DNA of 21,539 bases from a virus (lineage: Duplodnaviria > Heunggongvirae > Uroviricota > Caudoviricetes): positions 1 through 21,539 of the IMG/VR virus record IMGVR_UViG_2565956714_000006; one strand, 5' to 3'. The stretch's first letter is position 1; every line of letters begins with the position of its first letter. A model generated the notes under the pieces. The model was not told the DNA's origin. It saw nothing but the letters and a program-made list of their open reading frames with translations, and did no database searches. This document shows positions 17,347 to 20,269 of this stretch, one piece after another. A program made the translations under genes and the position numbers.

Positions 17347-17865
17347 TCACTTTGGCAGTCCGGGGATCGATATTTGCGCCTGCTGCTCAAGCCTTTCGAT
17401 TCTTGCTATGAGTTGCGGTTTTTTGATCCTGCCCCAGCGGTTTAGCAAGCGTCCTGACATACTGGCAACATCCTTTTCCTTCATGAACTCCAGCATTAAC
17501 TCGTTGTGCTCTCTTTGGTATGAGTGAGCCATCTCCATCAGCCTGTCACGCATCCAATTAAATGCTTTGATAAACGCCTCTTTGATGGCGGCAGCTTTTT
17601 TGCCGGTAAACGACATGATGATGTACATCGCGCCGTCTTTGGAAATTTCATATTCAACATACTGATTACCCTTGTGTTCATAGGTAACCCGCGAAAAGTT
17701 GCTGGTTAGAAATTCATCCGAACAGTCTAGCTTTTCGATTTTCTGAATGATGTGGTGATGCTGCTTGTCGAAGTAAGCTGCTACCTTGCGGGAGGTTGTG
17801 ATCACGCGATCACCAGAAACAACCACCATGTCCCGGAAATCGAGATTAGCCAATTGATGATTCAT
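17347..17865 (-). CDS. Rha-family phage regulatory protein, 172 aa from ATG at 17865 (track ORF uses upstream GTG at 17901)
   Basis: Motifs TTSRKVAAYFDKQHHHIIQKIEKL and YEISKDGAMYIIMSFTGKKAAAIKEAFIKAFNWM fit the Rha N-terminal domain consensus. Confidence 0.65.
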   Translation of the reverse strand: MNHQLANLDFRDMVVVSGDRVITTSRKVAAYFDKQHHHIIQKIEKLDCSDEFLTSNFSRVTYEHKGNQYVEYEISKDGAMYIIMSFTGKKAAAIKEAFIKAFNWMRDRLMEMAHSYQREHNELMLEFMKEKDVASMSGRLLNRWGRIKKPQLIARIERLEQQAQISIPGLPK

Positions 17866-18014
17866 AGCGTCTTTACCTTTTAGAAAGTGAGCCTGTCTCA
17901 CAGAAAAGCCGCCCCGAGATGGTCGCCACCATATACGGCAGTTCTCAGGCTCAACTTTCTGAAAGGCTCGGGTGATGTAATATGCGCGTAAGATGCGCTG
18001 TGAAATTCAGATGT

Positions 18015-18509: not shown

Positions 18510-18982
18510 GCCTCAATCTCTCTTACCGTTCCGCCAGCTTCTTTGAATTTTGCAATCAGGCTGTCAGCCTTATGCTCGAACTGACCATAACCAGCACCCG
18601 GCAGTGAAGCCCAGATATTGCTGCAACGGTCGATTGCCTGACGAATATCACCGCGATCAATCATCGGTAAAGCGCCACGCTCCTTAATCTGCTGCAGCGC
18701 AACAGCGTCCTGGCTTTTGGGAGAGAAGTCTTTCAGGCCAAGCTGCTTACGGTAAGCATCCCACCAACGGGAAAGAAGCTGGTAACGTCCGGCTGCTGTT
18801 GATTTGAGTTTGGGGTTTAGCGTGACAAGTTTGCGAGGGTGATCGGAGTAATCAGTGAATAGCTCTCCGCCAACAATGACGTCATAACCGTGATTTCTGG
18901 TTTTCTGTCGTCCGTTATCTGTTCCCTCTGACCACGCCAGCATATCGAGGAACGCCTTACGTTGATTATTGATTTCCACCAT
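18506..18982 (-). CDS. R: Endolysin R (lytic transglycosylase), 158 aa, lambda-type
   Basis: Near-identical to lambda R as recalled ([26 protein letters not shown]...). Confidence 0.95.
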
Positions 18983-19289
18983 CTTCTACTCCGGCTTTTT
19001 TAGCAGCGAAGCGTTTGATAAGCGAACCAATCGAGTCAGTACCGATGTAGCCGATGAACACGCTCGTTATATAAGCGAGATTGCTACTTAGTCCGGCGAA
19101 GTCGAGAAGGTCACGAATGAACCAGGCGATAATGGCGCACATCGTTGCGTCGATTACTGTTTTTGTAAACGCACCGCCATTATATCTGCCGCGAAGGTAC
19201 GCCATTGCAAACGCAAGGATTGCCCCGATGCCTTGTTCCTTTGCCGCGAGAATGGCGGCTAACAGGTCATGTTTTTCTGGCATCTTCAT
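18966..19289 (-). CDS. S: Holin/antiholin S (S107/S105 dual start), 107 aa, lambda-type
   Basis: Near-identical to lambda S as recalled, including the Met1-Lys2-Met3 dual-start motif (ATG at 19289 and 19283). Confidence 0.95.
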
Positions 19290-19414
19290 GTCTTACCCCC
19301 AATAAGGGGATTTGCTCTATTTAATTAGGAATAAGGTCGATTACTGATAGAACAAATCCAGGCTACTGTGTTTAGTAATCAGATTTGTTCGTGACCGATA
19401 TGCACGGGCAAAAC

Positions 19415-19444
19415 GGCATGAGGTTGTTAGCGCAACCTCATGCC
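19415..19444 (-). terminator. Perfect 12-bp stem hairpin (GGCATGAGGTTG / CAACCTCATGCC, 6-nt loop); candidate terminator or processing element downstream of the tRNAs
   Basis: Perfect inverted repeat; on the minus strand followed by GUUUUG. Lies in the otherwise empty interval between the tRNAs and S. Confidence 0.4.
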
Positions 19445-19531
19445 ACCCGCTTTCACGAAGATCATGTGTAGAAGGCCGCAGCGTAACTATCACTGATGAA
19501 TTCAGGATAGCCAGTGGCTACGGCTCAGTTA

Positions 19532-19607
19532 TGGTGCTGGTTAACGGACTTGAACCGCTACCCATTCGCTTACAAGGCGACTGCTCTACCATTGGAGCTA
19601 AACCAGC
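19532..19607 (-). tRNA. tRNA-Thr (anticodon UGU), CCA encoded
   Basis: Hand-folded cloverleaf: perfect 7-bp acceptor stem, D-arm GCTC/GAGC with GG loop, anticodon loop CTTGTAA, T-arm with TTCAAGT loop, discriminator A. Confidence 0.8.
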
Positions 19608-19612
19608 ATGTT

Positions 19613-19687
19613 TGGCGGGACAGCGTGGACTCGAACCACGATAAGAAGGTTAACAGCCTTCCGTAATGACCTTTATACGACTGACCC
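19613..19687 (-). tRNA. tRNA-Asn-like (anticodon GUU), CCA encoded, one acceptor-stem mismatch
   Basis: Hand-folded: acceptor GGGTCAG/CTGTCCC (T-T mismatch at 4:69), anticodon stem GAAGG/CCTTC with loop CTGTTAA, T-arm CGTGG-TTCGAGT-CCACG. Sits 5 nt from the tRNA-Thr. Confidence 0.65.
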
Positions 19688-19691
19688 AAAT

Positions 19692-19733
19692 AAAAAAAGC
19701 CACCGTTGCAACTTAAGAGTCACTAACGGCAGC
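19692..19733 (-). terminator. tR'-like leader terminator between the late promoter and the tRNA genes
   Basis: Minus-strand RNA stem GCUGCCGUU / AACGGUGGC (9 bp with two G-U pairs; would be C-A/A-C mismatches on the plus strand), 17-nt loop, followed by UUUUUUUAUUU. Confidence 0.5.
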
Positions 19734-19743
19734 TTACCTTCTA

Positions 19744-19773
19744 ATTATGGCTAAATGGATAATTGCATGTCAA
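19744..19773 (-). promoter_or_regulatory. pR'-like late promoter (sigma70 -35 TTGACA, 18-bp spacer, -10 CATAAT) at the 3' end of Q
   Basis: Consensus -35 hexamer at 19768-19773 and 5/6 -10 hexamer at 19744-19749 on the minus strand, where lambdoid phages place pR'. Confidence 0.55.
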
Positions 19774-20269
19774 GGCTTTTAACAGCAACATGCTTAACTT
19801 TCTCAACACGTTTACGCATTTTGAAAGCATTTTGCATTGGCTGGTACAAAACAAATAACGACGCTTTCAGGATGTCGTCAATTTCGTTTCTACAGGTTGC
19901 CAGTGAAGGTTTTCTCCATCCCTCGCCACCACGTCCACACATCTTGCGTGGCTTTGCAGTCGCGTGATAGTAGGATGCAATTGCTCGCTTAGATGAACCA
20001 TGAGCGTAGTAGCTGAGGAGGATGCCAAAGGCTTTCTTGTCAATGCACATGACGGAATCGACGACCTGAGAAATCAACATTCCATCATCATCATTGCACA
20101 TTGGCCTTGTCATAACTCTTCCCGGCTCTACGCTCTCCATGAACTTCGCTATTACGCTGCTCATACGCTTTTCCAGACGACCTGAATAAACCCATGCGCC
20201 CCACAGTTCAAGCCAGCCATTCAGCCACTCATGATGTTCTTTGGTGAGGTTTAGTTCTCTTATGCCCAC
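19751..20269 (-). CDS. Q: Late antiterminator Q, phi82/933W type, 172 aa with probable GTG start overlapping the ninI stop
   Basis: Motifs [21 protein letters not shown] and LLSYYAHG match the conserved pattern of 933W-type Q as recalled; unlike lambda Q. GGAG lies 7 nt upstream of the GTG. Confidence 0.7.

Follow-up and report, generated by a model that had tools for sequence, protein, structure and literature searches.

The sequence upstream of the holin gene S of phage lambda holds a hairpin (lambda positions ~45031-45060) with a GUUUUG tail, an sdi element and the dual start of S; no tRNA genes lie upstream, and Q and the late terminator tR' are of the lambda type. The phages Sf6 and CUS-3 carry a Q21-type gene with pR', qut and tR', to which Sf6 adds tRNA-Asn and tRNA-Thr, and in CUS-3 the stretch from tR' to the leader of the lysis genes is of other sequence. 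Phage 21 displays the order Q21, QBE, pR', tR', tRNA-Asn, tRNA-Thr and holin, with a cargo-free interval of 119 nt between tRNA-Thr and the class II pinholin S21 and without the lambda-type 3' leader module that carries the hairpin. Tandem terminators downstream of lambda pR' were reportedly described by Luk and Szybalski in 1983, and RNase III sites are found elsewhere in lambda, in the N leader, sib and cIII.

Here, we analyse a window of 21,539 nucleotides (IMG/VR virus record IMGVR_UViG_2565956714_000006, positions 1 to 21,539), which comes from a P22-like phage of the Sf6/CUS-3 type; all features given below lie on its minus strand. The late region reads Q - pR' - tR' - tRNA-Asn - tRNA-Thr - 242-bp gap - S. 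The late antiterminator Q (19751-20269, 172 aa) is an open reading frame of the phage-21 type with 98% identity to Sf6 gene 59, which is itself annotated as 'similar to phage 21 Q', and positions 19532-20000, a stretch that takes in the 3' half of Q and the tRNAs, are 82.8% identical to phage 21 DNA. The late promoter pR' (TTGACA-18-CATAAT, 19744-19773), found by a consensus scan with 11/12 matches, is collinear with pR' as annotated in Sf6 and HK75. The late leader terminator tR', read from the sequence as a hairpin with a T7 run that overlaps the qut region (19689-19734), occupies a position homologous to the annotated tR'/qut of Sf6 and HK75, and also to phage 21. It is followed by tRNA-Asn (GTT; 19613-19687) and tRNA-Thr (TGT; 19532-19607), both identified by ARAGORN and by Rfam RF00005, at 55.3 and 61.5 bits, respectively, so that a Q21-type Q, pR', tR', tRNA-Asn(GTT) and tRNA-Thr(TGT), the components of a phage-21-type late module, are all present and in order. 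Downstream, an open reading frame at 18966-19289 encodes a lambda-family holin/antiholin, S107/S105, with dual start at 19289 and 19283; the annotation of Sf6 describes genes 60 and 61 as resembling lambda S107 and S105. R, Rz and Rz1 come after S, as in the lambda S-R-Rz-Rz1 lysis cassette. Because S107 starts at 19289 and tRNA-Thr ends at 19532, the gap between them spans 19290-19531, or 242 bp. These coordinates are those of the first-pass annotation, and the layout that it described is real, with tR' to be added between pR' and the tRNAs.

As judged by homology, the 242-nt interval is a conserved non-coding leader of the lambda-family late-operon lysis cassette, an ordinary and already catalogued element homologous to lambda ~44945-45185 and to the CUS-3 feature bsq3. 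That such a leader, with the hairpin as the inner tier of one of its stem-loops, stands here in a mosaic with a phage-21-type module is the best joint explanation of the locus, to which we assign a probability of about 0.6. Leader nt 2-242 (241 of 242 nt) are 96.3% identical to the lambda sequence directly upstream of S, and identity is 97-99% to Sf6 and, over nt 1-242 or 4-242, to HF4s, CUS-3, HK446 and Kapi1 (99.2% over nt 4-242 for CUS-3). The homologous 241 bp of CUS-3 are annotated "bsq3; boundary sequence". Sf6, CUS-3 and HF4s share with the window both the leader and the lambda S-R-Rz-Rz1 genes, the latter at 98-99% identity. The leader has matches in 1310 of 5426 complete E. coli genomes, and the complete tRNA-leader-S block is present and collinear in 283 E. 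coli genomes, as a single BLAST piece in all matches listed; in a broader scan of genome contigs from a wider host range, the matches were mostly lambda control-DNA contamination. Homology across the whole interval, a fixed distance to the holin start and an sdi over the Shine-Dalgarno sequence, which together mark a lambda-family leader, were all found. The lambda GenBank record J02459 has no annotated feature inside the leader interval, and Rfam 15 covariance models run on 19200-19800 at E <= 10 matched the two tRNAs and nothing in the leader.

The absence of any ORF from the gap, as claimed in the first-pass annotation, is correct in substance: a mechanical 50-aa GTG frame at 19341-19493 has stops in P22, g341c, HK633 and ES18 and was rejected as a gene. 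Upstream of the leader in lambda, HK75 and CUS-3, ARAGORN detected zero tRNAs, and local alignment for tRNA remnants was no better than for shuffles. HK75 displays a T-arm-like GGTTCGATTCC upstream of the leader.

The first-pass annotation had compared the gap with the place of the stx genes in Stx phages and seen in it a toxin-less backbone or a Stx-type cargo slot left empty through loss or non-acquisition, with the hairpin possibly a recombination scar. Stx phages with a related Q do have tRNAs, stx2AB and further ORFs in the stretch from q to S, as exemplified by the Stx2c phage 2851. The order of q, tRNAs, stx2AB and S in that phage is similar enough for the gap to be analogous in position to the Stx slot: a related q (75% DNA identity, which also holds for the q/tR' region) is followed by tRNAs and, further on, the holin. 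However, the tRNAs of phage 2851 are Ile, Arg and Arg, the holin is different, no homologue of the leader is present, and about 4.8 kb with stx2AB and four ORFs separate the tRNAs from S within a q-to-S stretch of 5.4 kb. The window is indeed toxin-less, but a slot that is empty or vacated is contradicted by the presence of the same leader in lambda and its relatives. The interval is nearly identical in lambda and hundreds of phages and prophages, and its spacing is fixed: the distance from the end of tRNA-Thr to the hairpin is 87-88 nt in about 40 tRNA-carrying viral contigs, and that from the hairpin to the S start is 152 nt at nearly all loci. The distance from the Q stop to the hairpin is variable (278 to 1200 nt), the size variation being located upstream of the leader, between tR' and the tRNAs or leader, where insertions of HNH endonuclease genes sit, also upstream of the tRNAs. 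Among the relatives surveyed, those with the same flanks have no extra genes in the interval, and the sole insertion found inside it is an IS66-family element just after tRNA-Thr in one E. coli genome. Sequence comparison found no Stx phage with a homologue of the 242-nt leader, which likewise speaks against loss of cargo from this site. A scar is at odds with the presence of the hairpin in leaders without tRNAs and with its evolution by structure-preserving changes. Since relatives keep, in essence, a cargo-free conserved leader of S, the finding that the first-pass annotation had itself named as a refutation, we reject the slot and the scar, which have next to no chance of being correct. More generally, a gap beside phage tRNAs does not indicate that cargo was lost when that gap is the conserved leader of the next gene.

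The hairpin itself was described accurately. The inverted repeat 19415-19426/19433-19444 consists of 12 nt with 100% complementarity and a 6-nt loop, and on the minus strand is followed by GUUUUG. No other perfect 12-bp hairpin with a loop of 3-8 nt exists in the whole window, against an expectation of 0.005 per window from 200 first-order Markov simulations. An inverted-repeat search and RNA folding place it within a larger, two-tier stem-loop (19404-19450): the inner 12-bp hairpin (19415-19444, loop CGCUAA) is extended by an outer 6-bp helix, in which GCGGGU (19445-19450) pairs with GCCCGU (19404-19409), and the two helices are separated by a 3' bulge, GUUUU, at 19410-19414. The fold of this segment has a free energy of -30.2 kcal/mol (z = -5.6). 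The 12-bp hairpin thus forms the inner tier of a two-tier stem-loop that is conserved and belongs to the 3' module of the leader (module 2, below).

Conservation of this structure was surveyed in 101 unique leaders. RNAalifold misses the middle of the inner stem in these 101 sequences because the mismatches there are polymorphic, and pairs were therefore counted on the stated structure. By pair counts, the outer helix is 98.7% paired across homologues and the inner helix 87.7%. The outer helix shows, in the alignment, what read as compensatory changes, with exchanges CG:50/UA:43, GC:57/GU:36/AU:8, UG:68/CG:31 and GU:53/AU:46. Perfect pairing of the inner stem (12/12) is limited to this window among the 101 unique homologous leaders; the CUS-3 hairpin allele is the same as that of the window. 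Most inner-stem alleles have 1-2 mismatches on the sense strand. Unlike the perfect stem of the window, the lambda allele, GGCAGGAGGUCG/CAACCUCCUGCC, has a G-C pair at position 5 and a C.A mismatch at position 11, and Sf6 has a U.C mismatch at position 5, which is unpaired in 65 of the 101 unique sequences and whose two sides are in linkage equilibrium. Accordingly, perfect pairing is not what is conserved; the 12/12 stem is one allele of a polymorphic stem rather than a special feature. In HK633-type leaders, this position is occupied by a hairpin whose sequence differs. The loops occur as reverse-complement pairs (CGCTAA/TTAGCG, CGTCAA/TTGACG and CTCGAA/TTCGAG). The G-UUUU-G after the stem is kept in nearly all lambda-type copies; UGAUCUG or UGAUUUG replaces the U tract in P22-, ES18- and g341c-type leaders.

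Additional structures are predicted along the leader, which as a whole folds at -93.2 kcal/mol compared to -58.4 for shuffles (z = -7.6). Directly 3' of tRNA-Thr, the minimum free energy fold contains a long imperfect hairpin, H1 (19475-19524). The RNAalifold consensus encloses the two-tier stem-loop in a further helix, P1, formed by UUCGUG (19454-19459) and its predicted partner CACGAA (19388-19393); because both strands are invariant in the alignment, this pairing is beyond the reach of covariation testing. The leader also holds a conserved triple repeat (19308-19390), recognized through inverted repeats, with copies GAACAAAUC (19382-19390), GGAUUUGUUCUAU (19347-19359) and AUAGAGCAAAUCC (19308-19320). 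Pairing of the middle copy with one neighbour or the other would yield the alternative helices H3 and H4, of which RNAalifold favours H4. Finally, a stem-loop read from the sequence, CCCC-UUAUU-GGGGG (19296-19309), overlaps the Shine-Dalgarno sequence of S107; we take it to be the sdi of lambda (Blasi et al. 1989). Its stem shows a compensatory exchange, CG:70/UA:29 sequences (alignment columns 157-171).

Most of these elements are better paired on the sense strand than on the antisense strand, namely the outer helix (98.7% vs 71.7%), H4 (99.8% vs 92.9%) and sdi (96.6% vs 85.1%), the sense specificity being due to wobble pairs. The inner stem shows the opposite bias, with 97.6% pairing antisense vs 87.7% sense, and 99.8% vs 86.8% in P22-like leaders, where antisense pairing is better because A.C accounts for most of the sense mismatches. 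For the hairpin of g341c, the fold has -23.6 kcal/mol antisense and -17.9 kcal/mol sense. Most natural alleles are mismatched in the sense stem and the inner stem pairs better antisense, an observation that runs counter to termination.

At least two modules make up the mosaic leader. The first of them, module 1, consists of H1, the long 5' hairpin that begins at the 3' end of tRNA-Thr and covers leader nt 1-~70; it is also found with tRNAs before S21-type holins, as in E. coli Rb-50, where the tRNAs and H1 are followed by a class II (S21-type) holin. Module 2 is the 3' part of ~170 nt, which always ends at the holin start codon. In BTP1, a lambda-type leader precedes a class II holin. Mosaic breakpoints cluster at leader nt 1-2, ~62-72, ~186 and ~238, and invariant blocks survive in leaders that are ~25% diverged.

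As for function, the hairpin most likely serves either as a backup terminator (or insulator) or in the processing of RNA; terminator and processing site, both proposed in the first-pass annotation, stay in contention. Tentatively, hairpin and UUUU could serve, in the lambda-type leader, as a secondary terminator or insulator against Q-unmodified polymerase. A polymerase lacking the Q modification that reads past tR', or that has transcribed the tRNAs, would then meet the hairpin and be stopped by it and the UUUU, so that the lethal holin-endolysin genes would stay silent in lysogens, while Q-modified polymerase would ignore the hairpin; in read-through mRNA, the hairpin would refold into a longer helix. 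The hairpin resembles intrinsic terminators in being a stable GC-containing stem-loop, here with 12 perfect base pairs, followed by U residues, but it differs from them in having only 4 U, and even this tract is not conserved in P22-type relatives. For the former reason, a consensus terminator scan that requires at least 5/8 U after the stem did not call the site, the tail of which is GUUUUGCC. Loops in both orientations imply that loop orientation is irrelevant, which fits a generic stem-loop function. The covarying outer helix spans the U-rich segment and can form only once that segment has been transcribed, which suggests that it acts in the full-length RNA and not in termination. A terminator or insulator would be in line with the retention of G-UUUU-G after the stem in nearly all lambda-type copies and with expression in BTP1 lysogens, where the tRNA pair preceding the same leader was treated separately from the highly expressed genes listed, while the lysis genes remain at TPM 10-20 (PMC7067206).

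An alternative, rather unlikely in our estimate, is an RNA processing or stability element. In the read-through late mRNA, the predicted helix would then have three tiers (P1, the outer 6 bp, the U-rich 3' bulge and the inner 12 bp) and act either as a substrate of a double-strand-specific RNase, like RNase III at R1.1 of phage T7, or as a protective hairpin; it would split the tRNA/leader RNA from the S-R-Rz message and set the stability or translation of that message. The covariation and sense-strand specificity of the outer helix, the invariant P1 helix that RNAalifold places around it and the persistence of the architecture in P22-type leaders without the U tract are all in line with processing, as is the description of the BTP1 late operon as starting directly after two tRNA genes (PMC7067206). 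In the predicted fold, the geometry relevant to RNase III comprises 6 + 12 bp plus the invariant 6-bp P1 and a 3' bulge of 5-6 nt, and the two-tier stem-loop would share with phage T7 RNase III signals an asymmetric 3' internal loop. However, the uninterrupted helix falls short of the ~20-22 bp that RNase III substrates typically have unless the tiers stack, many sense-strand alleles have internal mismatches, and P1 is invariant, its pairing being a prediction. An improbable alternative dispenses with RNA altogether: the leader would act at the DNA level only, as a boundary sequence for recombinational swapping of late-regulation and lysis modules, and the inverted repeat would be neutral or would maintain itself through template switching, with flip-flop of the loop. 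The bsq3 annotation, the clustered breakpoints, the occurrence of the same leader before three holin types, the loops in both orientations and the independent assortment of arm alleles at stem position 5 fit such a role, which does not predict that the outer helix, H4 and sdi should change in a strand-specific manner, by compensatory or wobble-only substitutions. The different-sequence hairpin of HK633-type leaders and the invariant blocks of diverged leaders also speak against it.

The better antisense pairing of the inner stem, overall and in P22-like leaders, and the more stable antisense fold of the g341c hairpin would be explained if the hairpin were selected on the opposite strand, as part of an antisense RNA or as a barrier to transcription in the antisense sense of reading. 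In P22- and HK022-type leaders, moreover, the hairpin is followed, when read in the antisense direction, by a GC hairpin with UUUUCUUUU, which the scan calls terminator-like on the antisense strand. The window has H1 in its place, however, and the outer helix, H4 and sdi favour the sense strand; mismatches in lambda-type stems include G.A, U.C and A.A, which are unpaired on either strand. No conserved antisense promoter was detected in the leader or in the ~500 nt that follow the S start, and a scan with relaxed criteria over 153 unique loci returned zero conserved sites within the leader. The BTP1 paper lists nine ncRNAs, and neither its text nor a limited query of its supplement yielded an antisense RNA of this kind (PMC7067206). 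We consider selection on the opposite strand very improbable.

Returning to the conserved lysis-cassette leader, a broader and speculative possibility is that its ~170-nt 3' part is a cis-regulatory RNA cassette, mobile and so far unrecognised, that temperate phages of enterobacteria carry and that would set the basal silencing or the timing of holin expression. It would comprise the P1/outer/inner stem-loop, H3/H4 on the GAACAAAUC / GGAUUUGUUC / GARCAAAUCC triple repeat, and sdi. Literature searches on lambda tandem late terminators, the S leader or sdi, Term-seq of lambda and holin-adjacent antisense RNAs gave no mention of the hairpin, nor did the epsilon34 genome and HnrS sRNA papers; no experimental 3' ends or cleavage at the hairpin were found in the literature, and searchable publications give no function for the structured element upstream of lambda S. 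The sequence directly upstream of lambda S, among the most used in biology, nevertheless holds a conserved structured element with apparent compensatory changes. A role of the leader is testable in simple lambda mutants because the expression level of the holin sets lysis timing. The structure-preserving substitutions span lambda-, P22-, ES18-, g341c- and HK633-type leaders.

The genes under study lie on the minus strand in the order NinG (21539-20928), a Ser/Thr phosphatase (20931-20260), the 172-aa Q (20269-19751), a pR'-like promoter (TTGACA-18-CATAAT, 19773-19744), tR' (a hairpin followed by T7, about 19734-19689), tRNA-Asn (19687-19613), tRNA-Thr (19607-19532), a 242-nt gap (19531-19290), and lambda-type S107/S105 (19289-18966), with R, Rz and Rz1 downstream of S. 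The window overall is a P22-like (Lederbergvirus) genome, and its nearest relatives are vB_EcoP-720R6, CUS-3 and related E. coli and Shigella phages, such as Sf6. A 184-aa ORF (17347-17901, minus) lies immediately 3' of Rz/Rz1, and E. coli Rb-50 has at the matching place a gene whose annotation reads Rha family transcriptional regulator.

The gap and its perfect hairpin are real: the arms at 19415-19426 and 19433-19444 are 100% complementary around a 6-nt loop, and the 3' tail on the minus strand is GUUUUG. The window holds one such 12-bp hairpin, against 0.005 per window in a simulation at equal composition. A mechanically called 50-aa ORF was rejected as a gene because its frame is broken by stops in P22, g341c, HK633 and ES18; the gap is therefore non-coding, as first described.

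The gap is a conserved leader of S. Used as a BLAST query against 50,697 phage records, it matched 195 of them, with 97-99% identity in HF4s, HK446, CUS-3, Kapi1 and IME10. In lambda, which has no tRNAs, leader nt 2-242 (counted from the tRNA-Thr end) are 96.3% identical and adjoin S on its upstream side. When aligned with Sf6, lambda, CUS-3 and P22, the leader is collinear as far as the S start codon. Near-identical copies have long stood in the lambda, Sf6 and CUS-3 records, so that the feature, considered as sequence, is already known. The homologous 241 bp of CUS-3 are annotated "bsq3; boundary sequence", and the Sf6 record gives pR', qut, tR' and the tRNA pair the label "similar to phage 21", leaving the leader interval unannotated. 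Phage 21 itself has the same Q-pR'-QBE-tR'-tRNA-Asn-tRNA-Thr order at 82.8% identity, but S21 follows tRNA-Thr after 119 nt. Among 5426 complete E. coli genomes, a tRNA-leader-S query found partial or full matches in 1310; the whole block was present in 283, as a single BLAST piece in all matches listed.

Spacing points the same way. Across 120 viral contigs with the hairpin context and the reference loci, S starts 152 nt from the start of the hairpin with few exceptions, and 87-88 nt separate the tRNA-Thr end from the hairpin wherever both tRNAs occur (about 40 loci). The Q stop lies 278 to 1200 nt from the hairpin. What varies is therefore the upstream stretch that separates tR' from the tRNAs or leader. 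The longest intervals there (loci L049, L066 and L069) hold an ORF of 163-170 aa in which an HNH-type motif is present, and the HK629 gene at this spot is annotated "HNH endonuclease". The sole insertion seen inside the leader interval is the IS66-family element ISEc23, which in E. coli 214-4 (L251, NZ_CP025840.1) sits about 26 nt 3' of tRNA-Thr.

The first-pass annotation had taken the gap for a toxin-less backbone or a slot that had lost Stx-type cargo. Its picture of Stx phages is right: Stx2c phage 2851, whose q and tR' region is 75% identical to the window, carries stx2AB between its tRNAs and S. Those tRNAs, unlike the window's, are Ile, Arg and Arg, and stx2AB is followed by four ORFs and a different S. 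The leader is absent from Stx phages among the 50,697 records. The window is a separate, toxin-less mosaic, and the emptied slot is contradicted by a conserved, cargo-free leader before S in lambda and relatives, by its fixed spacing and by insertions that lie mostly upstream.

Leader breakpoints recur at four places: at the 3' end of the tRNA (nt 1-2), immediately 5' of the invariant CUUCGUGAA (about nt 62-72), at about nt 186 and at about nt 238. Most of the first ~70 nt are predicted to fold into H1, a long imperfect hairpin of ~50 nt (19475-19524, minus) that begins a few bases 3' of tRNA-Thr. H1 is a mosaic module of its own: the SfI match is limited to nt 1-62, E. coli Rb-50 (L250) has H1 and the tRNAs ahead of a holin of the S21 type, and H1 is also present in lambda, which lacks the tRNAs. 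The remaining ~170 nt occur behind another upstream hairpin in HK022- and mEp-type phages, and at 73-79% identity in P22, ES18, g341c, HK633 and one Enterobacter phage. In BTP1 (LT714109.2; D23580 387004-387207) and related Salmonella phages, a complete lambda-type leader runs to ~5 nt short of the start codon of a class II holin; the leader is therefore swapped independently of holin type and behaves as a cassette marking where the lysis genes begin.

Pairs were counted on a stated structure across 101 unique aligned leaders. An outer helix of 6 bp (GCGGGU/GCCCGU in the window) surrounds the 12-bp inner hairpin, with a U-rich 3' bulge of 5-6 nt, and is 98.7% paired, with exchanges at pairs 1 (GU:53, AU:46), 2 (CG:50, UA:43, UG:6), 4 (GC:57, GU:36, AU:8) and 6 (UG:68, CG:31). 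The stem of sdi, the stem-loop over the S107 Shine-Dalgarno sequence, also covaries (CG:70, UA:29), and shifting the 3' partners as a control cuts pairing from 93% to 35-48%. Because the leaders are related, independent events are few, and the covariation is supportive, not proof. RNAalifold adds an invariant helix, UUCGUG/CACGAA, around the whole element and favours a GGAUUUGUUC/GARCAAAUCC helix (H4) adjoining sdi. Within a triple repeat at 19308-19390 (minus), all copies of which are conserved (GAACAAAUC, GGAUUUGUUC, GAGCAAAUCC), the middle copy is able to form a helix with the copy on either side, and 2 nt of the downstream arm also belong to the sdi stem; the repeat may form an alternative-structure switch beside the S107/S105 starts. 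No Rfam family matched the leader, which looks like a conserved structured RNA outside Rfam.

The inner stem is 87.7% paired. Its position 5 is AU in 13 leaders, GC in 13, UA in 10 and unpaired in 65; at position 9, 52 leaders have GC, 11 have AU and 38 have no pair; at position 10, 49 have UA and 40 have CG. HK633-type leaders have another stem sequence at the same place with 9/11 pairs. The window shares its hairpin allele with CUS-3 and alone has 12/12 pairing among the 101 unique leaders. Since the sides of position 5 assort freely in lambda-type leaders (AC 18, GC 13, GA 10, UC 5, AA 5, UA 2), in linkage equilibrium, the perfect stem is one chance combination of alleles and not the selected state. 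Loops occur as reverse-complement pairs (CGCTAA/TTAGCG, CGTCAA/TTGACG, CTCGAA/TTCGAG; L265 Shimwellia, L152/L156, L132/L139, L150/L159, L189), which indicates flip-flop inversion of the segment that the inverted arms enclose and a hairpin function that would be independent of loop sequence.

With G.U counted as paired, the sense (minus) strand is favoured by the outer helix (98.7% against 71.7% antisense), H4 (99.8% against 92.9%) and sdi (96.6% against 85.1%), and the antisense strand by the inner stem (97.6% against 87.7%; 99.8% against 86.8% in P22-like leaders), since its mismatches are mostly A.C. An antisense function of the hairpin would suit the latter figures, as well as P22- and HK022-type leaders, in which, on the antisense strand, a GC hairpin and UUUUCUUUU come after the inner hairpin (e.g. 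L005 879-904) and are terminator-like in our scan. Such a function is nevertheless unlikely because a relaxed search of 153 unique loci found no conserved antisense promoter in the leader, the window carries H1 in place of the GC hairpin and UUUUCUUUU, and among the mismatches of lambda-type stems are G.A, U.C and A.A, which pair on neither strand.

The elements that precede the gap are known ones. In lambdoid late control, pR' is constitutive and its transcripts end at tR' when RNA polymerase has not been modified by Q; the modified polymerase ignores downstream hairpins. A leaky holin-endolysin cassette is lethal. Tandem late terminators have reportedly been found in lambda. Phages that carry the tRNAs have them downstream of tR'. 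For BTP1 lysogens, the tRNA pair is treated separately from the listed highly expressed genes, and the lysis genes have TPM 10-20, ascribed by the authors to spontaneous induction in few cells (PMC7067206). Our tentative main reading, at a probability of about 0.35, is that the inner stem and UUUU form a secondary terminator or insulator that would act on unmodified polymerase. Against it, the U run is short, fails the terminator scan and is missing from P22-type leaders; the stem is weakened in most alleles; and the covarying outer helix cannot form before polymerase has read through.

This late formation of the outer helix favours a function in the mature RNA, whether in its processing, its stability or its translation, which we consider somewhat less likely than termination. 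A purely DNA-level recombination linker agrees with the "boundary sequence" label and the recurrent breakpoints and is at odds with the strand-specific wobble pattern; we regard it as improbable. As originally proposed, the hairpin may be a terminator or a processing site; it is not a recombination scar.

tR' lies within ~10 nt of the pR' start site (19689-19773, minus), and a constitutive leader RNA from pR'-tR' would be of the phage-21 type and very short (~45-50 nt). In Stx phages, short pR'-tR' RNAs are reported to be regulatory sRNAs (PMC7547250).

Exact lambda sequence also occurs in many unrelated bacterial "genomes" (L260, L263, L266, L277, L280, L281, L283, L296 and others; L254, L278, L290), and these matches are contamination, not host range. 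Contigs or "plasmids" of about 3.5 kb join a poly-T/GGAA adapter-like leader to lambda, which begins exactly in the hairpin loop (GCGCTAACAACCTCCTGCC); this matches the Oxford Nanopore DNA control strand. One example is Arcanobacterium hippocoleae plasmid unnamed1 (CP136411.1, 3566 bp). Contigs of ~48.4-48.5 kb (L254, L278, L290) look, from their size, like whole lambda.
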